DNA of 35,593 nucleotides from a virus (IMGVR_UViG_2703718859_000026), one strand, 5' to 3'; positions 12,831 through 34,171 are shown, numbered from the stretch's first letter. The notes: generated by a model from the letters alone, not told the origin. Translations and numbers: made by a program.

Positions 12831-13280
12831 ATGGTTACAGCGGAGTACAGAATAATGCGTGATATCCAACAGGTTCTGTCCCGATGGGGTGCATGGGTGG
12901 TAAATAATCATGAGAGTGTGGCATGGTCCGGCGTCGCTGCCGGATTTAAGGGAGTGATCCCATCAAAGGTTAAATCACGGCCTCAGTGTACCGATGATGA
13001 TGCGCTGATTATCAGCAATTGCATGGCGCAACTGAACGTCAACAACAGCGATTTGCATGATTTTCTGTATGATTATTATGTGTTCGGGATGACGCTTATG
13101 GGACTGGGCCGTAAGCATGAGCGCTCTGATTGCTGGGCCGGGCGGGTACTGCAAAAAGCTGAAGGTGTTATTGAGGGGATGTTGATTATGCAGGGAATAA
13201 AACTGGAAATGGACAGATACGTTGAGCGTGAACGATCAAGGGCACAGGTCAGTCAGTTTTCCGGACATACGGGAAATTGA
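12831..13280 (+). CDS. Q: Late-gene antiterminator Q (933W/Stx-phage type)
   Basis: [20 protein letters not shown] ... [14 protein letters not shown] ... [11 protein letters not shown] closely matches remembered Q of Stx phages; probable start ATG about 12855. Confidence 0.8.
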
Positions 13281-13304
13281 AAGCGCGGGGTTTTACTGTA
13301 GAAT
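13277..13304 (+). promoter_or_regulatory. PR'-like late promoter candidate (TTGAAA - 16 nt - TAGAAT)
   Basis: Near-consensus sigma70 -35/-10 pair overlapping the Q stop codon, the expected position of PR'. Confidence 0.4.
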
Positions 13305-13639
13305 GACTGCGGGTGCTTGAGGGGGTCTGCCTCGGGCATGCTGCCGTAAGGCAGACGGAGAAAAGCCCCAGTTAACATTACGTGTCCTGCAAGACGCTTA
13401 ACATTAATCTGAGGCCCAATCTATGTCACACAACCGTAGGTTAGCCTCTTACGTGCCGGAAGGCAAGGAGAAGCAGTCTATGAAGCAGCAAAAGGCGATG
13501 TTAATTCGCCCTGATCGTCATCTGTTTAACCGTCATAGTGACGGCACTGGTAACGAGGAAAGACCTCTGCGAGGTACGAAATGTGTCAGGCATCCTCAAC
13601 GCACCCGTACTTTATTTGTCATATGCTCCGCAAAATGCA

Positions 13640-13671
13640 GGTTGTCGTTGCAACCCGTGCGGTAATTTTTT
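13640..13671 (+). terminator. Weak tR'-like terminator candidate
   Basis: Short stem GGTTG/CAACC followed about 10 nt later by T6; imperfect. Confidence 0.25.
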
Positions 13672-13718
13672 GTGTGCGAGTGCTCAAAAAACGTTGATTT
13701 TCATAAAAGGATGATTTT

Positions 13719-15800
13719 ATGCTGCCAGACCAGCGACCAGCGACCAGCGACCGTAAATCAAGAAAGTCTGTAAAATCTGTTGAACCAGACATTGCCGACC
13801 GGGCTAACAGCTGGCTCAAATCTTATGGACTTGATTACAAACTGGAGCAGGCACCACTTAACAACGAGATCGATAACGCACTGGATGCTTATTTTTCGAA
13901 AAATGGCGGCGCAGGCGGTAATCGTCCCGACGTAAAACTCCTTGTTCAGGACAAATACGGCAAGCAGTATCCCGTTCTCATCGAGTATAAAGGCTACAAG
14001 GACAGGCTTATCAGACTTGGCAGCAACGGTATTATTGAGAACAAAGATGCCAGAAAAGAATGGAATTTTAAAAATATTAATGGATACGCGGTGAATGGCG
14101 CAGTCCATTATGCCAACGCACTTCTTCAGTTCACCAATTACCCTGATATTATTGCTATTGGTATGACCGGCTGGCGCGATGATGATACAGGCGAACTGCA
14201 TCATGAAATCGGCGTGTGGTACGTATCAAAGAATAATTTAGGAGCCGGGCAGAAGGTTGGTGAATTCACCGACTTATCATTCCTTGCTGACAAAAATGTT
14301 GATGGATTTCTCAACAAGATAAAGCTGCTTAATCTTCCTCCCGAAGAACTGGAAAAAATCAAGGCCAGCAAAGAGGAAGAGATAGACACGCGACTTTCCC
14401 GTCTGAATAACGATATTTACCAGAATGAAAAGGGGCTTGGTGAAAGCGATCGTGTTTACCTTGTTGTGGCTACCGTTATTGCAACGTTGGGGATTCCGGG
14501 AAAGTTAGCACCGCTGGATAAAAAAGAACTGACCTCTTCAACGGAGGAGGACTTGCGTGATGGTGATATTATTTTCAGGAAAATAAGGAATTTTTTAAGG
14601 CTGAAAGCTGTTCCTGAAACAAAAAGAGAAATGATTTTGCGCTCGTTGCAAAATACGCTGTGGACTGAAAACATTAACAAACCAGTCAACGGTGAAAGCC
14701 AGTTAAAGCGCGTGTTTGTTAAAGTTGTTGATGATCTTGGGGAGTATTACAAAATCGGACTGACCACCGATTTTACGGGCAAACTGTTTAATGAGATGTA
14801 TCGCTGGCTTGGATTTACGCAGGACAAACTCAATGACGTCGTTCTGACACCACCTTATGTTGCCACATTGCTGGCACGACTCGCCAGAGTAAACAAAGAT
14901 TCCTATGTGTGGGATTTTGCTACAGGTTCTGCGGGATTGCTTGTGGCTGCAATGAATGAAATGCTCATTGACGCCAGAGAAAATATTCACTCACCGAATG
15001 AACTACAACTTAAGGAAGCGCAAATCAAGGCTGAACAGCTTCTTGGCCTTGAGGTGTTATCCAGTATTTATATGCTGGCCATCCTGAATATGATTTTGAT
15101 GGGGGATGGTAGCTCGAATATCCTCAATAAAGACTCGCTGGCCGATTTTGACGGCAAGTATGGATTTGGGAAAACAGGAGAAAAATTCCCTGCGGACGCA
15201 TTTATTCTCAATCCTCCGTATTCAGCTAAAGGTAACGGCATGATTTTCGTGCAGAAGGCGCTGTCGATGATGGATAAAGGCTATGCTGCAGTGATTATCC
15301 AGAGTTCAGCCGGCACAGGAAAGGCTACGGAGTACAACAAAAAAATACTCAAGGAAAATACCTTGCTGGCAAGCATCAAAATGCCTGCGGATCTGTTTAT
15401 TGGTAAATCAAGCGTTCAGACGTACATTTACGTTTTTCAGGTAAAAATTCCGCATAACGCGAAACAGGCTGTTAAGTTTATCGACTTTTCCAATGACGGC
15501 TATGCTCGCTCTAATCGCAAAAAGGCAAGAAACAATCTTGTTGATGCCGATCGTGCAAAAGAGCGTTATCAGGAGGTTGTGGATCTGGTTCACTTCGGGA
15601 AAGGTTGCCTTAATATCTTTACGGAGGATGAATATTTTGAGGGAACAATCGATCCTGATAGTGGTGAGGACTGGAATCAGACCAGGCCAGTAGATACCAG
15701 ACCGACACTGGAGGATTTTAAAAAGACGGTTGGCGACTATCTTGCGTGGGAGGTGTCAAAACTTCTTCAGGGGCGTGATGCGTCAGAAAAAAAGCAGTAA
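13719..15800 (+). CDS. Restriction-modification enzyme subunit: N-terminal PD-(D/E)xK-like nuclease motif fused to gamma-class N6-adenine DNA methyltransferase (BcgI-A / MmeI-like)
   Basis: 693 aa; NRPD71-x17-E89-Y-K91; motif I VWDFATGSAGLLVAA then motif IV FILNPPYSAKG in gamma order; AT-rich relative to flanking phage genes. Confidence 0.7.
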   Translation: MLPDQRPATSDRKSRKSVKSVEPDIADRANSWLKSYGLDYKLEQAPLNNEIDNALDAYFSKNGGAGGNRPDVKLLVQDKYGKQYPVLIEYKGYKDRLIRLGSNGIIENKDARKEWNFKNINGYAVNGAVHYANALLQFTNYPDIIAIGMTGWRDDDTGELHHEIGVWYVSKNNLGAGQKVGEFTDLSFLADKNVDGFLNKIKLLNLPPEELEKIKASKEEEIDTRLSRLNNDIYQNEKGLGESDRVYLVVATVIATLGIPGKLAPLDKKELTSSTEEDLRDGDIIFRKIRNFLRLKAVPETKREMILRSLQNTLWTENINKPVNGESQLKRVFVKVVDDLGEYYKIGLTTDFTGKLFNEMYRWLGFTQDKLNDVVLTPPYVATLLARLARVNKDSYVWDFATGSAGLLVAAMNEMLIDARENIHSPNELQLKEAQIKAEQLLGLEVLSSIYMLAILNMILMGDGSSNILNKDSLADFDGKYGFGKTGEKFPADAFILNPPYSAKGNGMIFVQKALSMMDKGYAAVIIQSSAGTGKATEYNKKILKENTLLASIKMPADLFIGKSSVQTYIYVFQVKIPHNAKQAVKFIDFSNDGYARSNRKKARNNLVDADRAKERYQEVVDLVHFGKGCLNIFTEDEYFEGTIDPDSGEDWNQTRPVDTRPTLEDFKKTVGDYLAWEVSKLLQGRDASEKKQ

Positions 15801-15834
15801 ACTCCCGTCTTGCAGAGCTTGAGCGGGAGTTTAT
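15788..15834 (+). promoter_or_regulatory. Candidate -1 programmed frameshift signal: A AAA AAG heptamer plus 10-bp stem-loop (alternatively an intrinsic terminator)
   Basis: Heptamer at the last two Lys codons of the methyltransferase ORF; stem TAAACTCCCG / CGGGAGTTTA with 16-nt loop begins about 3 nt downstream; the -1 frame is open into the next ORF. Confidence 0.4.
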
Positions 15835-15874
15835 TAAATCTGGTGGTAAATGGGAAGAATACACAATCGAAAGA

Positions 15875-16402
15875 TTGTTCAGTATTCAGACACCTAAAAA
15901 GAAATTTAATGCCAATAAATTAACATTTAATGGCAACTATCCTTATGTTGCCAGAGGAAGTAACAATAACGGCATAAAAGGATATATAGATGAAGATGAA
16001 TTATATCTCAACCCGGGGAATACAATTAGCTTTGGTCAGGATACTGCGACCATGTTCTATCAGGAAAACGCATATTTCACAGGTGATAAAATAAAGATTT
16101 TTTCTCTCAGACATGGAGAGTTAAATTCGCGAATTGCTGTTTTTCTTATATCAGCAATGAAAAAATCTTTTTCAACGTTTAGTTGGGGGAGTAGCTCTTT
16201 TAATGAGAATGTTCTCAATAAGGTAAAGATAAATATACCTACGTTTAATAATGTTCCTGCATATAATTATATGGTAAAGTATATAGAAGAGCTGGAAGCG
16301 GCCCATATAGAAGAGCTGGAAGCGGCCCATATAGAAGAGCTGGAAGCTTACTTGCTGGTTAGCGGACTCGCGGACTCGCGGACTCGCGGACTCGCGGACT
16401 GA
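15875..16402 (+). CDS. Specificity (S/B) subunit, first target-recognition domain plus repeat linker; no ATG start (track start is TTG)
   Basis: 175 aa; TRD-like segment LTFNGNYPYVARGSNNNGIKGYID; C-terminal IEELEAAH repeats; frame open upstream back to within the methyltransferase 3' end. Confidence 0.6.
   Translation: MFSIQTPKKKFNANKLTFNGNYPYVARGSNNNGIKGYIDEDELYLNPGNTISFGQDTATMFYQENAYFTGDKIKIFSLRHGELNSRIAVFLISAMKKSFSTFSWGSSSFNENVLNKVKINIPTFNNVPAYNYMVKYIEELEAAHIEELEAAHIEELEAYLLVSGLADSRTRGLAD
16281..16348 (+). repeat. 24-bp in-frame tandem repeat, about 2.8 copies (ATATAGAAGAGCTGGAAGCGGCCC), encoding (IEELEAAH)n
   Basis: Visible directly in DNA and in the translated ORF (YIEELEAAHIEELEAAHIEELEA). 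Confidence 0.9.
16362..16400 (+). repeat. 8-bp tandem repeat GCGGACTC, about 4.9 copies, at the junction of the two TRD ORFs
   Basis: AGCGGACTCGCGGACTCGCGGACTCGCGGACTCGCGGACTGA; unit length not a multiple of 3. Confidence 0.9.
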
Positions 16403-16464
16403 TAAGCTATGAGCTTACACCACAGGAATATAACGCGATTGAGCTATTAAATAGCAATAATCTT

Positions 16465-16986
16465 ATGTGGGGCACTTATAACCTCAAAAAGTTATTTGGC
16501 CCCGCAATAAGAGGTAAGCGTCTGAAAAACGCAGATCGTATACCCGGCTCCTTGCCTTTTGTTACTGCGGGTGAAGGCAATGAAGGTATTTCTGCATTTA
16601 TCAGTAATGATGTTGTTGTATTCCCTGAAAATACCATTACGATAGATATGTTTGGCTCCGCAAAATACAGAAATTATGAGTATGGTGCAGATGACCATGT
16701 GGCAGTTGTTCATACAGAATTCTTTGACAGAAATGCCGTTATTTTCATAACAGCATCAATTCATAAGTCTTCTTGTACCGGAAAGTTCAACTACGGGAGA
16801 AATTTCTATGCAAAAGATGCCGACGAGTTAATGGTATCTTTGCCGTCAAAAGATAATAACCCTGATTATTCTTTCATGGAGACGCTAATTCTAGCAGTAC
16901 ATAAACTGGTCATCAAAGATGTTGTCCAGTACACTGATAAAAAGCTGGTAGCGTACAGGCAGATTACATCTGAGAAGGTTGTTTAG
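16465..16986 (+). CDS. Specificity (S/B) subunit, second target-recognition domain, in a different frame from the first
   Basis: 173 aa; TRD-like segment RIPGSLPFVTAGEGNEGISAFIS paralogous to the first TRD; frame open upstream through the 8-bp repeats; no Shine-Dalgarno seen. Confidence 0.6.
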   Translation: MWGTYNLKKLFGPAIRGKRLKNADRIPGSLPFVTAGEGNEGISAFISNDVVVFPENTITIDMFGSAKYRNYEYGADDHVAVVHTEFFDRNAVIFITASIHKSSCTGKFNYGRNFYAKDADELMVSLPSKDNNPDYSFMETLILAVHKLVIKDVVQYTDKKLVAYRQITSEKVV

Positions 16987-17108
16987 TGCAAATCCCCACC
17001 TGACAGGGTGGGGAATGGTCAGGTTATCGTGCCCTGATGCAGAAAAACAGTTTACAATCGTAAAAATCATCATATCATGACAAAAGTGGTTACATTGCCA
17101 CGCTGCTT

Positions 17109-17133
17109 AACCCGCCGATGCGCGGGTTTTTTG
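17109..17133 (+). terminator. Rho-independent terminator
   Basis: Stem AACCCGC/GCGGGTT, 6-nt loop, T6 tail. Confidence 0.6.
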
Positions 17134-17312
17134 TATCCAGAATCCTGTAAGTTATACGGAAAGTACACAGAAAGGAAGGTGCGACCGCAATTAATAACAA
17201 AATCTTAAAAATCGCATATGGCACTATTAGTTTTCTAAATATTGTATATTTTAAGTATTGCAGGATGACCCTGTAACGAAGTTTGCGTAACAGCATTTTG
17301 CTCTACGAGTTT

Positions 17313-17342
17313 GCCAGCCTCCCCCAGTGGCTGGCTTTTTTT
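17313..17342 (+). terminator. Rho-independent terminator
   Basis: Stem GCCAGCC/GGCTGGC, 9-nt loop, T7 tail. Confidence 0.65.
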
Positions 17343-17583
17343 GTATCCGTTCAACAGGAATGTTACATACCTCACAATTAAGTCTGTTGAATGTTGTCTG
17401 CCCGGATGAGAATTTGTTAGAAAAAAACTGCATGGTGAATCCCCCTGTGCGGAGGGGCGACTGGTGAATGGTATGATCTCTTTGATGATCGTAAGCGAGA
17501 ATACGCGGGTTTGGTGGCACCAGGCCGAACTCACCGGGAGGCACCCGGCACCATGCAGTATACAGAGATTAGGCATATATCAG

Positions 17584-17608
17584 GGCCCCTCATAGCAGGG
17601 GCCTTTTT
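17584..17608 (+). terminator. Rho-independent terminator
   Basis: Stem GGCCCCT/AGGGGCC, 6-nt loop, T5 tail. Confidence 0.6.
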
Positions 17609-17825
17609 ACATGCAAAAAAAAGCCGCCCCGGGAAGAGCGGTTGGCAAGAAGAAAAGCAATATGAACAATTAATTAACGCTGCGAATAATACCTTACAGT
17701 AATCACCCTGCGCAACTGTGAGGAGTGTATTTCTTTTTTGCGGGTGGTTGTCTTTTTCCCTTGTGTTTCGGGACTTCCGCTCACTCCTTATCTTATTCAG
17801 TACATTATCCCGGCCGGGAGGATTC

Positions 17826-19865
17826 ATGGCATTTAAACACTATGACGTGGTCAGGGCGGCGTCGCCGTCAGACCTTGCGGAACGAATAACTCAAAAACTG
17901 AAGGAAGGGTGGCAGCCTTATGGTAGTGCGCTGATTTCGACAGCTGGTTATGGTGCGGAGTTCATCCAGCCAGTTGTGAGTGAGGGGAGCATCTCATCAC
18001 CAGAGGAGCCAGGCAACCGTCCGACGACCTCAGCGCCTTCTGTTGCGCCAGAATATTACTATGTGATCGCGCTTGCTGGTCAGTCCAATGGTATGTCATA
18101 CGGTGAGGGACTGCCATTACCGGATACATTCGACAGCCCTGATCCACGTATTAAACAGTTAGCGCGTCGCAGTACGGTGACACCGGGCGGCGCTGCATGT
18201 ACCTATAACGATATTATTCCGGCAGATCACTGTCTCCATGATGTACAGGATATGAGCAGCCTTCATCATCCGAACGCCGATCTGTCAAAAGGTCAGTATG
18301 GCTGCGTCGGACAGGGTTTACATATCGCCAAAAAATTACTGGCGTTTATCCCGAAAAATGCCGGAATCCTTCTGGTACCTTGCTGTCGTGGAGGGTCAGC
18401 ATTTACTTCCGGCGCTGAGGGGGCATTCAGTGAATCGTCAGGAGCGACGGCCGAATCATCCCTGTGGGGTGTCGGCAAGCCGCTGTACAACGATCTGCTT
18501 ACCCGTACAAAAGCCGCGCTGGATAAAAACCCCAAAAACGTCCTGTTATCCGTGGTCTGGATGCTGGGAGAGTTTGATCTGAAGTCAGCAACATACGCAC
18601 AGCACCCGCAATTATTCCTGAACATGGTGAATCAGTTCCGCGCCGATCTCAGCGCATATTCTTCACAGTGCACCGGAGGCAATGCATCATTTGTTCCCTG
18701 GATTTGCGGCGATACCACCTATCTCTGGAAACAAAAATATACCTCTCAGTACCCGGTGGTTTACGGTGCATATCAGAACAAAGAAGCGCAAAAAATTTAT
18801 TTTGTGCCCCTGATGACCGATGAGAAAGGTACTAACACGCCAACAAACCTGCCTGCCGAAGATCCTGATCTGGCAGAAGCCGGTTATTACGGTGCTGCAT
18901 CCCGCAGTAATGGAAACTGGACCTCTTCAGATCGCGCCACGCATTTCAGTTCATGGGCCCGTCGCGGCATTGTTTCTGACCGTCTGGCAACGGCGATCCT
19001 GATGCATGCAGGGAAGACAGCCGCCTTCCTGAAAGGCACACCCGCACCGTTCAGCGTGGTCGTAGCGCCTCCCGCCACGGCAGGTTCAGACAGCGCCACC
19101 ACGGAAAGCCCGCAGCCCTCCACATCTGCACCTCAGCCGGGCGCAGGCACACAGCCATCACCGGAAGTTCCACCGGCAACTGAAACACCGGCAAGAACAA
19201 CTGCCGTCGCTTATCGTGCAGATACACAGGAAGGGAAACTGAAAGAACAGGGCTGGACGGGGGCAGACGGAAAAGCCTCTGTCGTAGATGATTCTGCTGC
19301 TGAGAGCGGTAAAGCCATGCGAGTGGAAAAAGTCCAGGGGCAACAAACAGCCTGGAAAATTGCCCACGATGTGCCTGCAAGTAAAGCAGCTGAATTACTT
19401 CAGAGAGGCGGTGAAATTGCCTTCCGTTTCAAAATTCCCGAAGGTGTTCAGCTGGCAACAAACCGCTTCGCCATGGCCCTGTACTGGCCTGTTTCTCAGC
19501 TACCTGAAAACGTTGTTCTGGAAGGCAGCGCAGGAAACGATATGCTGGCCGCCTTCTTCATCCAGAGCGACAGCGCAAACCTGAATCTGATGCAGCACAA
19601 ACAACAGAATGCAAAACTGGGAACCTTCGGGGCATTTAATCATAACTGGCACAACGTGGTGTTCAGGTTTGCCGGCAATAACAGCATCAGCGTGACACCG
19701 GTCATCAACGGTCAGACCCAGGCGGCCTTTAATCTGGCGAAATGCCCGGCGGCAGGACTGGATAACGACAAGCTGTTACTCACTGACATTACCAGTAACC
19801 AGGATACCTACCCGGTTCTGATTGAGCACGTAACAGTGGCAATCAATAACAGCAACGCCGCATAA
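17826..19865 (+). CDS. nanS-p: Prophage-encoded 9-O-acetyl sialic acid esterase NanS-p (DUF1737 N-terminus plus SGNH/SASA hydrolase domain)
   Basis: MAFKHYDVVRAASPSDLAERITQKLKEGWQPYG N-terminus and GQSN motif (YYYVIALAGQSNGMSYGEG); GGGAGG Shine-Dalgarno before ATG 17826; track start 17718 is an upstream non-ATG extension. Confidence 0.8.
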   Translation: MAFKHYDVVRAASPSDLAERITQKLKEGWQPYGSALISTAGYGAEFIQPVVSEGSISSPEEPGNRPTTSAPSVAPEYYYVIALAGQSNGMSYGEGLPLPDTFDSPDPRIKQLARRSTVTPGGAACTYNDIIPADHCLHDVQDMSSLHHPNADLSKGQYGCVGQGLHIAKKLLAFIPKNAGILLVPCCRGGSAFTSGAEGAFSESSGATAESSLWGVGKPLYNDLLTRTKAALDKNPKNVLLSVVWMLGEFDLKSATYAQHPQLFLNMVNQFRADLSAYSSQCTGGNASFVPWICGDTTYLWKQKYTSQYPVVYGAYQNKEAQKIYFVPLMTDEKGTNTPTNLPAEDPDLAEAGYYGAASRSNGNWTSSDRATHFSSWARRGIVSDRLATAILMHAGKTAAFLKGTPAPFSVVVAPPATAGSDSATTESPQPSTSAPQPGAGTQPSPEVPPATETPARTTAVAYRADTQEGKLKEQGWTGADGKASVVDDSAAESGKAMRVEKVQGQQTAWKIAHDVPASKAAELLQRGGEIAFRFKIPEGVQLATNRFAMALYWPVSQLPENVVLEGSAGNDMLAAFFIQSDSANLNLMQHKQQNAKLGTFGAFNHNWHNVVFRFAGNNSISVTPVINGQTQAAFNLAKCPAAGLDNDKLLLTDITSNQDTYPVLIEHVTVAINNSNAA

Positions 19866-23139: not shown

Positions 23140-23991
23140 ATGGCAAAGCTGGACTGGAAAAAGCTGGAGCAGGCATTCCGACGCGAACATGCCAGAACTG
23201 GCATAAAACTTCAGGACTGGTGTCGTAAGAACAATATCAGTTATGGCACGGCTCGCCGGTACATAAAATTGCGCAAAAACCCCCCCATAAATACAGAGGA
23301 AAGTGCGCAGAAAAATGCGCAAAAAAGTGCGCAAATTGATGATCAAAAAAGCGCACAAAAAAATGTGCAGGGATCCGATGACGAATCCAGTAATGACAAG
23401 GCTTACAGCGATGATGGCAGTGGTGAAAAATGCGCAAAAAACTGCGCAAATTCGGCAGAAACGAAACGCAACAGCAGATCGGGCAATCCTCACCCCGTTG
23501 CCCGGTTTAGCGACCGTAACACCCACGCCGTAAGACACCGTGGATATGCGAAGTATCTTGAGGCAGATAACCTCATGGATGATGCGTCCGACATGGTGCT
23601 GTTCGATGAACTGGTGTTCACCCGAGCCCGCGCACTTTCAGTAACTAAGGCACTTAAAGGGATGTTCGCCGACCTGGAAGAGGCAACTGACGTGGAAACC
23701 CGCGTTGCTCTTTACGACAAAATACTCAAAGCTGAACAGGCCCTTGACCGGAATATTGCCCGTATCGAGTCAATTGAACGCTCATTGCTGACGCTGGATG
23801 TCCTGGCTGAGACAGCACCAAAACTTCGTGCTGACCGGGAAAGAATCAACGCCGCCAGAGATAAACTCAGAGCGGAAACCGATATTCTGACCAGCCAGCG
23901 CCGGGGTGTTATTACGCCAGTCAGTGACATCGTGTCATCGCTGCATGAAATGAGTAATTCGGGGAGACTGGATGACATTCCGGAAGAATAA
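23140..23991 (+). CDS. Terminase small subunit (putative)
   Basis: N-terminal HTH-like segment (KLQDWCRKNNISYGTARRYIKL), low-complexity AQK repeats, coiled-coil C-terminus; immediately upstream of and overlapping terL. Confidence 0.55.
   Translation: MAKLDWKKLEQAFRREHARTGIKLQDWCRKNNISYGTARRYIKLRKNPPINTEESAQKNAQKSAQIDDQKSAQKNVQGSDDESSNDKAYSDDGSGEKCAKNCANSAETKRNSRSGNPHPVARFSDRNTHAVRHRGYAKYLEADNLMDDASDMVLFDELVFTRARALSVTKALKGMFADLEEATDVETRVALYDKILKAEQALDRNIARIESIERSLLTLDVLAETAPKLRADRERINAARDKLRAETDILTSQRRGVITPVSDIVSSLHEMSNSGRLDDIPEE
23304..23448 (+). repeat. Phased 12-bp repeats containing TGCGCA inside the putative terS gene
   Basis: TGCGCA at about 23304, 23316, 23328, 23431, 23443 with variants GCGCAC/TGTGCA at about 23351-23370; encodes (S/N)AQK peptide repeats. 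Confidence 0.6.
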
Positions 23992-32378: not shown

Positions 32379-34171
32379 GTGTTGTTGTTTCGGGGACGCT
32401 GAAATCTCCTGATGGTGAGGCGATATCAGGAGCAAATATTACCCTGACGGCGCTGACAGTTTCACCGGATGCGCTCAGCGGCACCAGTGCGTCGGCAGTG
32501 ACCCGTGAAGGTGGATATTACGGAATGACGATGGATCCGGGGGAGTATGCGGTTTCGGTGACGGTGAAAGGGAAGACAGCTGTCTACGGACGTGTGCGTA
32601 TTGAGGGGACCGAAAGTACGGTGACGCTCAATATGCTGTTACGCCGCAGTCTTGTTGAGGTGAGCATACCCGGAGAGCTGCTGACAGATTTCCGGCAGAT
32701 ACAGAATAATGTGGCTGATGACCTTGCCACTATTCGTCGCCTGAATGAAGACACGGCGACAAAAAACACTCAGGCCACACAGTCAAAAGAAAGTGCAGCA
32801 GCCAGTGCGAAGAGTGCATCTGACAGTGCAAAGACGGCAACCAGCAGGGCGGCTGAAGCCGGACAAAAAGCCAGTGAAGCTGCAGAAGCAGCGACCCGGG
32901 CAGGCGAGTCTGAAAAGGCAGCGGCAGCAGACGCGAAAAATGCAAAACAACATGCTGAAACAGCCCGGGTGGCTCAGCAGGCAGCCGGAGACATTCTTGA
33001 GCGTGCGGAGGCTGCAACGGTCAGTGCAGAGGAAGCCCGGCGCATGGCTGAGAATGCGCGGGGACCTCAGGGCGACCAGGGGCCCAAAGGTGATACCGGC
33101 CCCCGGGGTGAAAAAGGTGAGCCGGGTCAGAGAGGTCCTCAGGGTCCGAAAGGAGAGCGCGGTGAGAGAGGTCCTCAGGGTAGTGTCGGCCCGGCAGGTC
33201 CGCGGGGTGAGAAAGGCGAGCAGGGGGAGCGTGGACCACAGGGATTACAGGGGCTGAAAGGTGAAACCGGAGAACGTGGAGCACAGGGCGCACAGGGACC
33301 GGCAGGCCCGACGGGGGCAACGGGGCCTGCTGGTCCTCGTGGTGAGACGGGGCCACAGGGTGCACAGGGGCCAGCCGGAGCAACAGGACCTGTTGGGCCA
33401 CAAGGAGAGCGCGGTATTCAGGGGCCTGCCGGTCCTGCGGGCCCGCGAGGTGAAACCGGAGCCAGAGGTGAAAAAGGAGACCCCGGGGACCCCGGCGGCC
33501 CACCGGGACCAAAGGGTGATACCGGACCTGCTGGCCCTGCCGGTGAAAAAGGTGAACCCGGTGAGCGAGGGCCACAGGGATTACAGGGACCACCGGGTCC
33601 TGCCGGAGAGAGAGGTCCGGCAGGCGAACCGGGAGCGAAAGGTGAAACCGGAAAACCCGGACCTGCTGGTCCTCAGGGGCAGCCCGGTCCACAGGGACTT
33701 AAAGGTGACAGGGGCGAGCCAGGACCTACAGGCCCACAGGGACCGGCGGGAGAGCGGGGACCTCAGGGGCCTCGGGGGGTAGCTGGTCCTGTCGGCCCGG
33801 CAGGTGCAGCGGGCGCTAAAGGTGATGCAGGACCTGCAGGGCCTGCCGGTCCCCGAGGACCCGCCGGTGAACGGGGCCCTGCCGGGCCGAAAGGTGAGCG
33901 TGGTGAACCGGGACCGATGGGGCCTCCGGGGCCAGCAGGCGACGCAGGAAACAGCACAGTAAAAGGCATTCGTCTGGGAAATGAGATGGTGTACCGTCCA
34001 TATAGTGGCTATAGCAACTTGAGCCTACGCTCAATGGATGGCTGTGTGCTTACGGGAATTGCGGGAACAAACATGCCAGACAAGAGCCGTATAGATGAAA
34101 TCTACTACAGACCCTTGCAAATGACTTTTGGTGATGGAAGCTGGCGCTCAGTCGGTATAGGGGAAGTGTGA
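32375..34171 (+). CDS. Tail fibre protein with collagen-like Gly-X-Y repeat domain
   Basis: 598 aa; Ala-rich coiled segment, then about 98 consecutive G-X-Y triplets (aa about 230-525), then a globular C-terminus; followed by tail fibre assembly gene. Confidence 0.7.
33062..33950 (+). repeat. Collagen-like triplet-repeat coding region (GGN CCN / GGN GAN ... periodicity)
   Basis: Protein shows uninterrupted [22 protein letters not shown]... pattern; DNA correspondingly GC-rich and repetitive. Confidence 0.85.

Follow-up and report, generated by a model that had tools for sequence, protein, structure and literature searches.

The stretch of DNA analysed here (35,593 nucleotides, hereafter the window) is a lambdoid E. 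coli prophage in which a restriction-modification locus sits between Q and nanS-p (Table 1). In related Stx prophages tRNAs and stx2 are found between the restriction-modification locus and the esterase gene, and neither is present in the window. The RM protein matches the PADLOC model REase_MTase_IIG (PDLC03616, E 5e-234) over residues 17-684 and Pfam N6_Mtase (E 5e-21), while residues 36-98 give a weak match to VRR_NUC (20.3 bits, under the curated cut-off of 23.8). Its methyltransferase domain is of the gamma-class N6-adenine type and shares one polypeptide with the nuclease, and phage PhiR12_3 has a near-identical homologue under the annotation "restriction enzyme BcgI alpha chain-like". 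For the S protein the PADLOC match is Specificity_II. Sequence searches of the PDB with RM and S gave no match and only the fold search was informative: the AlphaFold model of S matches the HsdS structures 1YDX and 1YF2 and the S subunit of BsaXI (8W0P_C) in Foldseek. No HsdR-type ATP-dependent translocase was found in the locus, which is flanked by the Q antiterminator and a hok/gef pseudogene on one side and by the nanS-p esterase on the other. The gene that hosts the 24-bp repeat encodes the S subunit of a restriction-modification system of BcgI-like Type IIB/IIG and is not a Type I hsdS, because nuclease and methyltransferase are fused, HsdR is missing, and S matches both Specificity_II and the fold of BsaXI-S. 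An earlier note on this DNA had placed the repeat in the linker of an S subunit and compared it with Type I HsdS; it was right about the S gene and about a helix directly after the first target recognition domain (TRD1), but the system is not of Type I, since the partner is a fused R-M protein without HsdR.

Table 1. Features of the restriction-modification locus and its neighbours in the window
Feature	Position	Strand	Remarks
Q antiterminator	12831-13280		
pR'-like promoter	13277-13304		just after Q
hok/gef remnant (pseudogene)	between Q and RM ORF		
RM (A) subunit gene, 693 aa, BcgI-A-like	13719..15800	+	N-terminal nuclease fused to N6-adenine methyltransferase
7-bp repeat (GACCAGC)x3.6, hypervariable tract	13728..13752	+	Tandem Repeats Finder, 100% matches; starts 9 nt past RM start codon
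A_AAA_AAG slippery heptamer, predicted -1 frameshift site into S	15788..15794	+	RM frame, two codons before RM stop TAA 15798-15800
S gene 5' part: N-terminal helix, TRD1, CR1 helix, premature stop	15788..16402	+	-1 frame; Methylase_S E 1e-22, Specificity_II
24-bp repeat x2.8	16281-16347	+	Tandem Repeats Finder: period 24, 100% matches, no indels, score 134
8-bp repeat (GCGGACTC)x4.9	16362-16400	+	Tandem Repeats Finder, 100% matches; loop between CR1 and TRD2
S gene 3' part: short helix, TRD2, CR2 helix	16363..16986	+	different frame from 5' part
nanS-p-type esterase	17718-19865		

The 24-bp repeat and its copy number

The score of the 24-bp repeat is the highest given by Tandem Repeats Finder in the 35.6-kb window, and a perfect repeat of 67 bp cannot be due to chance. 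It starts a few residues past the Pfam Methylase_S match that covers TRD1 (PF01420, E 1e-22) and is read in the S frame (codon starts at 2 mod 3, with the ATA of the repeat at 16283) as ...NVPAYNYMVKY-IEELEAAH-IEELEAAH-IEELEA-YLLVSG. Both the repeat search and the translation bear out the earlier description of about 2.8 tandem copies encoding IEELEAAH-IEELEAAH-IEELEA after the first TRD, with the small correction that the repeat ends at 16347 and not at 16348.

AlphaFold models of S were built on a 49-sequence alignment (mean pLDDT 82), and their global confidence is moderate (pTM 0.54-0.57). The model with three units consists of TRD1, a helix at 144-176 (33 aa), a disordered stretch, a short helix, TRD2 and a helix at 351-385 (35 aa), whereas with two units the first helix spans 144-168 (25 aa) and the last one, the 35-aa CR2, is unchanged. 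As modelled, the 24-bp repeat is therefore the body of CR1/D1, the first dimerisation helix, which in HsdS-type proteins is one of the two helices of the antiparallel coiled coil separating the TRDs (PMC3874165). In these models a continuous helix gains 8 residues per unit, about 12 Å and, if the helix is ideal, about 80° of net rotation, so the claim that a change in copy number would keep the frame and alter helix length agrees with the models. Over 1-4 copies CR1 ranges from ~17 to 41 aa against a constant 35-aa CR2, and since CR2 does not vary, one or four copies leave the two helices very different in length (17 or 41 vs 35 aa). The same problem, of fitting unequal helices into the coiled coil, has been noted for TAEL (PMC3874165).

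The proposal that homologous loci be surveyed for 1, 2, 3 or 4 copies was followed, and all four numbers were found in proteins otherwise at least 92% identical. Complete E. coli genomes have 2 or 3 IEELEA units at this locus, and three combinations of TRDs are represented: TRD1-a/TRD2-a with 3, 3, 3, 2, 2, 3, 2 and 2 (the window first, then L002-L008), TRD1-a/TRD2-b with 3 and 3, and TRD1-b/TRD2-b with 2, 2 and 3. Proteins at least 92% identical to the reconstructed S in a collection of 5.8 billion proteins have 1, 2, 3 and 4 units, several of the variants occurring on 9-27 contigs each. The numbers of IEELEA and of LADSRTRG, the peptide encoded by the 8-bp repeat, combine among them as (3,3), (3,2), (4,3), (2,4), (2,2), (3,1), (2,3), (4,2), (2,5) and (1,5). 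Salmonella prophages have the same repeats in S, with 3 and 4 IEELEA units, and one IMG/VR locus has 4, while a metagenome scan with the exact repeat-junction sequence gave no match. All three repeat tracts differ among three bovine isolates from Okinawa whose Q and RM proteins are identical, so the repeats change fast. Copy-number differences among near-identical S genes are as expected from slipped-strand mispairing or unequal crossing-over. Short-read assemblies are error-prone at tandem repeats, which could suggest that the repeat or its variation is an artefact of assembly or sequencing; we regard this as extremely improbable, because 1, 2, 3 or 4 copies occur in many independent assemblies including complete genomes. 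The counts differ between complete genomes as well as dozens of independent contigs, and S protein clusters of each length are found on 2-27 contigs.

Repeats of this kind extend well beyond enterobacterial prophages. Among the best 120 S homologues one copy was found in 4, two in 72, three in 33 and four in 4, and an octapeptide with the consensus [I/L]xEL[E/Q]Axx is present in 1-4 copies across the BcgI-like S family in many phyla. Haemophilus influenzae S reads ITELQAER-LQELQAER-LQELQGY, with 2 or 3 units (ITELQAER/LQELQAER), Microcystis S has IAELEAER twice or three times, and the alignment contains IAELEARH, VAELEALH, VSELQAAS and similar units in other taxa. The repeat DNA of H. influenzae is 100% identical over 2.4 copies, and in GTDB loci from many distant lineages 17-18 of 18 bases are identical between DNA units. 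Units are thus near-identical in DNA within a lineage while they differ between lineages, which points to concerted evolution through ongoing duplication and loss.

The 8-bp and 7-bp tracts

The 8-bp repeat begins 14 bp downstream of the 24-bp repeat. Its unit is not a multiple of three and so shifts the frame: with the 4 full units present in the window the S frame reaches TGA TAA at 16400-16405, the ORF stops at the TGA (16400-16402), and TRD2 lies in another frame. The 5' part translates as KKAVNSRLAELEREFIKSGGKWEEY...IEELEAYLLVSGLADSRTRGLAD followed by two stops and the 3' part as ...GLISYELTPQEYNAIELLNSNNLMWGTYNLKKLF...KLVIKDVVQYTDKKLVAYRQITSEKVV followed by one, and an internal ATG at 16465 coincides exactly with the start of TRD2 (ORF 16465-16986). 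Because S of the window is truncated to TRD1-CR1, there is no TRD1-TRD2 spacing for the repeat to rule there. The earlier idea of a repeat that spaces two half-sites consequently stands as far as its position in the CR1 helix after TRD1 is concerned, but not for the S of the window itself, which is not intact and ends after CR1.

TRD1 and TRD2 are contiguous in L003, L004 and the proteins P0001-P0018, the latter being intact S alleles with two TRDs and two long helices in the order TRD1-CR1-TRD2-CR2. The E. coli genomes have 4, 4, 6, 6, 8, 11, 16 and 16 full 8-bp units; the TRDs are joined only at counts of 0 mod 3, loci with 6 being annotated as a single CDS, and S is split in loci with 4, 8, 11 or 16. 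Of individual E. coli strains, 2018-166 (CP075632) has 3 copies of the 24-bp unit and OkiPb01692 (AP042554) has 2, both with the 8-bp tract in frame, whereas 04-00955 (CP035498) has 3 copies and a truncated S. In-frame S proteins have LADSRTRG one to five times, corresponding to 3-15 DNA units, so that three units in frame add 8 aa. Across loci the count goes from 3 to 26 or more (at least 26 in the IMG/VR locus L096), and the length of the tract differs between strains. The encoded segment is disordered in the AlphaFold models (pLDDT <50). Close relatives read ...LLVSG-LISYELTP... and have no 8-bp tract, which indicates a recent insertion in the enterobacterial lineage.

By analogy with characterised systems, S of the window is most likely a TRD1-CR1 half-subunit dimerising through the helix encoded by the 24-bp repeat, and it probably recognises a palindrome. 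Such a half-subunit would not simply be an "off" state, going by three experimental precedents: HpyUM032XIII, BsaXI TRD1-CR1 and truncated NgoAV. HpyUM032XIII, a BcgI-like Type IIG system of Helicobacter pylori, likewise has a fused RM, and a slippery tract lying between its TRDs divides S into S1 and S2; RM with S1 methylates the palindrome CYAN7TRG and the fused S1-S2 gives methylation of CYAN7TTC (PMC4450513). It differs in its G12 tract and chromosomal location, and no helix-length repeat or RM-S frameshift link has been described for it. In BsaXI, TRD1-CR1 alone leads to a palindromic site, with cutting at AC N5 GT (PMC9159934). NgoAV, a Type IC system of Neisseria gonorrhoeae, pairs an in-frame helix repeat (LEAT, 0-3 copies) with a frameshifting tract further downstream, so that its two switches are laid out like the 24-bp and 8-bp repeats; the poly-G frameshift truncates S, and the palindrome GCAN8TGC is then recognised (PMC6789123). 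Unlike the prophage locus, it is a Type I system with a homopolymer tract and a tetrapeptide repeat, the prophage tract being an octanucleotide in 3 to 26 or more units.

The 7-bp repeat near the start of RM is hypervariable in number, with 16, 19, 23, 30, 31, 55, 66, 80, 83, 120 and more units in homologous loci and an overall range of 3-120 copies. The length of the tract modulo 3 gives three states of the RM start. The body of RM is in frame with a start of the ATG 13719 type in the window, L004, L007, L008, L010, L012 and the Salmonella locus L014 (in which other changes disrupt the RM ORF), with an alternative upstream ATG/GTG in L002, L006 and L011, and with no start codon in L001, L003, L005 and L009. 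Automatic annotation places spurious "YXWGXW repeat" ORFs on the opposite strand of this tract. Neither of these two repeats, nor the slippery heptamer at the end of RM, had been mentioned in the earlier note.

The junction of the RM and S genes

S lies in the -1 frame relative to RM, and no ATG, GTG or TTG is found in the window upstream of the conserved N-terminus of S and TRD1. The 3' end of RM reads ...GA A_AAA_AAG CAG TAA (15786-15800), with a heptamer of the dnaX type, and a -1 shift at this heptamer reads KKAVNSRLAELEREFIKSGGKWEEY... and continues into TRD1. From the sequence, fusion of RM and S by programmed -1 frameshifting at the end of RM is predicted. Two other start sites for S are unlikely: TTG 15875, taken from an ORF list, would cut the first strand of TRD1 (KWEEYTIERLF) and remove the conserved N-terminal helix, and ATT 15833, called by PGAP, would remove the same helix, which is conserved across the family; neither start codon is conserved in relatives. 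The A7 run at 15787-15793 was also considered as a phase-variable tract or a sequencing error and rejected, as A7 is present in 10/10 E. coli loci and forms a canonical heptamer in the RM frame.

The arrangement is shared by distant relatives. RM ends with G_GGA_AAG TAA in TRD1-b prophages and in H. influenzae, and with A_AAA_AAA CGG TAA in Salmonella. The comparison covered 80 loci of GTDB representative species, among them Bifidobacterium, Clostridia, Bacteroidota, Campylobacterota, Neisseria, Pasteurellaceae and Gracilibacteria; an RM gene was identifiable upstream in 72 loci, and in every one of these S is in the -1 frame, while three further, contig-limited loci inspected by hand have the same junction. 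When the window and L012-L094 were re-analysed with the motif as the anchor, a heptamer was present in 69/84 sequences (G_GGA_AAA in 41, G_GGA_AAG in 22, A_AAA_AAG in 3 and A_AAA_AAA in 2), directly abutting the stop codon in 62 loci, and in 30/69 loci the S frame has no canonical ATG, GTG or TTG ahead of its first Trp. The amino acid of the codon preceding GGA varies (CTG, TTG, CAG, GTG, ATG, GAG, CCG and others), but this codon ends in G in every G_GGA_AAR locus, and the glycine codon of the heptamer is always GGA. This indicates conservation at the nucleotide and not the protein level. In the -1 frame, the peptide right after the heptamer (K[AV][VI]NSRL / GKIDASLN) is kept through synonymous changes, and L038 and L064 are natural in-frame RM-S fusions exactly at the heptamer junction. 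Counting against frameshifting are an ATGA overlap start in about 10 loci, with TTG or ATG candidates in some others, and the lack of the heptamer in L073. As a downstream RNA stimulator, only a 5-bp stem was seen by eye in some loci. Many loci also have a GAGG-like element some 10 nt 5' of the heptamer, but conserved acidic codons overlap with it.

If ribosomes shift by -1 at G_GGA_AAR or A_AAA_AAG, one mRNA would give free RM and RM-S in a set ratio, and could in this way supply the 2RM:1S composition of BcgI and BsaXI. BcgI consists of separate RM and S subunits in this ratio, AloI and CjeI are RM-S fusions of ~1250 aa, and for HaeIV action as a homodimer on a symmetric site is assumed (PMC3874165). 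The predicted frameshift product, ~1090 aa with a full S or ~895 aa with the truncated S of the window, would resemble AloI, CjeI and HaeIV. The masses expected are about 79 kDa for free RM and about 125 or 102 kDa for RM-S with the full or the truncated S, respectively. In BcgI, AloI, CjeI and HaeIV, however, fusion or separation is fixed in the gene, whereas the prophage sequence predicts both RM and RM-S from one mRNA. The fuller proposal, that S is made only as a C-terminal extension of RM through a conserved -1 frameshift, to which three hypermutable repeats were added in enterobacterial prophages, is a tentative one, and judging by these sequence patterns we would give it slightly less than an even chance. 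In the searchable literature, including a 2016 recoding review, we found no earlier description of a frameshift link or of combined repeat tracts for BcgI-like enzymes.

Repeat copy number and the recognition site

It was proposed earlier, with EcoR124I and EcoR124II as the precedent, that the copy number of the repeat governs how wide the recognition site's gap is. The precedent is correct (Loenen et al. 2014, PMC3874165): two TAEL units give N6 and three give N7, and the difference was reproduced in hybrids (PMC3874165). Natural NgoAV alleles behave in the same way, one LEAT leading to GACN6TGC and two to GACN7TGC (PMC6789123). As in EcoR124I/EcoR124II (Type IC), the prophage S has an in-frame tandem repeat in the first dimerisation helix after TRD1 and natural copy-number variants. 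However, the TAEL unit is 4 aa (12 bp) against 8 aa (24 bp) in the prophage, and EcoR124, being of Type I, has HsdM and HsdR as separate subunits, while the prophage partner is a fused nuclease-methyltransferase with no translocase. The tetrapeptide unit of about one helical turn that defines repeats of the TAEL/LEAT type in Type IC HsdS is hence not found in the prophage S, an 8-aa unit in a Type IIB protein. The octad can be read as two tetrads (IEEL-EAAH), so that the EcoR124 rule, in TAEL and LEAT 1 bp for 4 aa, would predict a change of about 2 bp in the gap for each 24-bp unit.

The 24-bp repeat being the length-variable module of CR1/D1, the chances seem to us, on these analogies, about evenly balanced that helix length sets the distance and twist between the two DNA-reading domains. 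Where the 8-bp repeat is out of phase, the half-S would dimerise through CR1 and steer recognition to a palindrome, and in that dimer both helices would change length together. The proposed roles of the tracts are RM on/off for the 7-bp repeat, helix length for the 24-bp repeat and full versus half S for the 8-bp repeat, the three together acting as a combinatorial generator of specificity and of on/off states.

The variation could be attributed instead to slippage that is merely tolerated, with specificity unchanged and helix length affecting at most the stability or activity of the complex. In the two Type I systems tested, the gap shifted by 1 bp for every 4 aa when the copy number changed naturally (PMC3874165, PMC6789123), but BsaXI, the sole Type IIB enzyme tested, argues against a simple ruler: with 8, 15, 21 or 32 aa of CR1 deleted, BsaXI TRD1-CR1 kept its AC N5 GT spacer and still cut, with lower activity (PMC9159934). 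The tolerance of the S family for 1-4 copies, and a CR2 that stays at 35 aa while CR1 takes ~17 to 41 aa, are also in accordance with neutral slippage. BsaXI shares with the prophage system the (RM)2S composition and the order TRD1-CR1-TRD2-CR2, and its cryo-EM structures, including 8W0P, show a fold that the prophage S model matches. It is nevertheless a distant relative, with much larger proteins (476-aa S), knob and paddle domains and no CR1 repeat, and the unchanged gap was seen with engineered deletions in the half-S only. Moreover, near-perfect DNA repeats are kept in many distant lineages, which suggests that mutability has been retained and not eroded. Taking both sides together, we consider tolerated slippage rather unlikely, although a serious alternative.

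It is also conceivable that the main use of the repeat region is to provide homology through which prophages exchange TRDs, in which case unequal crossing-over would alter the copy number as a side effect. In Type I systems, crossing-over within the D1-coding region is known to exchange TRDs (PMC3874165), and TRD1-a/TRD2-a, TRD1-a/TRD2-b, TRD1-b/TRD2-b and TRD1-b/TRD2-a genes have identical IEELEAAH DNA at the junction. Such a role is compatible with a helix that sets the gap and does not exclude it, but it leaves unexplained the repeats of chromosomal single-copy systems such as that of H. influenzae, and as the main function it appears improbable to us. More generally, a helix that sets the gap, specificity-neutral slippage and a recombinational role, in descending order of probability, are not fully exclusive readings. 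Our literature search found no published motif assigned to the prophage BcgI-like system: the Type IIG enzyme in the O111 STEC methylome paper is a different one, the H. influenzae methylome papers list motifs with none assigned to the BcgI-like system, and a survey of Type I repeat tracts does not cover the BcgI-like prophage system.

From these comparisons the 24-bp repeat would represent a known kind of mechanism in a new family, Type IIB, with a new octad unit and in a prophage locus that has several hypermutable tracts and a probable frameshift fusion. If copy number sets the gap, one slippage event would give the lysogen a new specificity of both restriction and methylation, and the principle of EcoR124 and NgoAV would extend to Type IIB enzymes. 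These enzymes are used as tools, for example in 2b-RAD. The sole attempt to engineer a change in the spacer of a Type IIB enzyme, made on BsaXI, failed (PMC9159934). The frameshift, if real, links two-subunit enzymes (BcgI) to single-chain ones (AloI, CjeI) and may explain the origin of single-chain Type IIB enzymes, and its conserved signal would offer a testable answer to how the RM:S stoichiometry is set. Comparisons between strains indicate that the locus carries contingency switches of the simple-sequence-repeat type in E. coli. Switching in E. coli is generally attributed mainly to invertible elements and methylation-dependent switches. As the system occupies the stx position of Stx-type prophages, phage superinfection, horizontal transfer and the STEC methylome could all be influenced by its state. 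The three hypermutable repeats together, if our reading of them is true, would produce many restriction specificities and states within a population of lysogens.

Position of the RM-S locus

The RM-S locus, which consists of the fused nuclease-methyltransferase gene RM and its specificity subunit gene S, sits inside the late-operon interval from Q/pR' (antiterminator gene and late promoter) to the esterase gene nanS-p, as compared with the homologous loci L002 and L004-L006. The same interval houses stx in Stx phages. In strain 04-00955 the S region is 100% identical to that of the window and is followed by tRNAs and stx2b, while both tRNA and stx are absent from this interval of the window. 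A Hok/Gef-family toxin gene 5' of RM (L002 598-754) is intact in some strains and annotated as frameshifted in several.

Features of the window
Feature	Position	Unit or motif	Location
Q/pR' to nanS-p interval	13281-17717		late operon
Hok/Gef-family toxin gene	about 13297-13453		5' of RM
7-bp repeat	13728-13752	(GACCAGC)x3.6	just 3' of RM start codon
Slippery heptamer	15788-15794	A_AAA_AAG	3' end of RM
Perfect 8-bp repeat	16362-16400	(GCGGACTC)x4.9	14 bp 3' of 24-bp repeat
Imperfect 12/24-bp repeats	23300-23369, 23426-23450	AAAGTGCGCAAA...	inside ORF
18/36-bp repeats	33113-33181	many GGT/GGN-CCN codons

Junction of RM and S

Most relatives (L012-L094) carry the heptamer G_GGA_AAR at the end of RM. 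In these loci and in the window the RM stop codon is usually situated directly 3' of the slippery heptamer, and S, often lacking a start codon, is always in the -1 frame relative to RM; two of the relatives have RM and S fused in frame. The sequences predict a conserved programmed -1 frameshift, which would yield an RM-S fusion protein.

Repeat tracts

The 7-bp unit is present 3 times in the window versus 16 times in strain 04-00955, and 16-120 times in homologous prophages, with a start codon available in two of the three phases of the tract. PGAP labels this tract, on the wrong strand, as 'YXWGXW repeat-containing protein'. In the window S ends early, after CR1 (the helix following the DNA-reading domain TRD1), because the 8-bp tract is out of phase. 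Other genomes have from 3 to 26 or more 8-bp units, and an in-frame tract inserts n copies of LADSRTRG in a disordered loop of S.

The ORF with the 12/24-bp repeats is found in the region 5' of the packaging and structural genes. The 18/36-bp repeats have a collagen-like look (Gly-X-Y) and presumably belong to a tail-fibre gene.

S homologues and TRD shuffling

In E. coli 2015C-3121 an IS1A is inserted in the 5' end of S (L007 3214-3911). Salmonella S homologues (P0021, P0025, P0027, P0061, P0093) bear the NCBI name 'phosphoribosylglycinamide formyltransferase', evidently an annotation error.

All four pairings of variants a and b of TRD1 and TRD2 were found among prophages (L001, L009-L012, L095; P0020, P0024, P0081, P0096), and the junction of the shuffled domains is identical IEELEAAH-coding DNA. 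The TRDs are thus shuffled from prophage to prophage, and the shared junction DNA is consistent with recombination inside the IEELEAAH-coding repeat.
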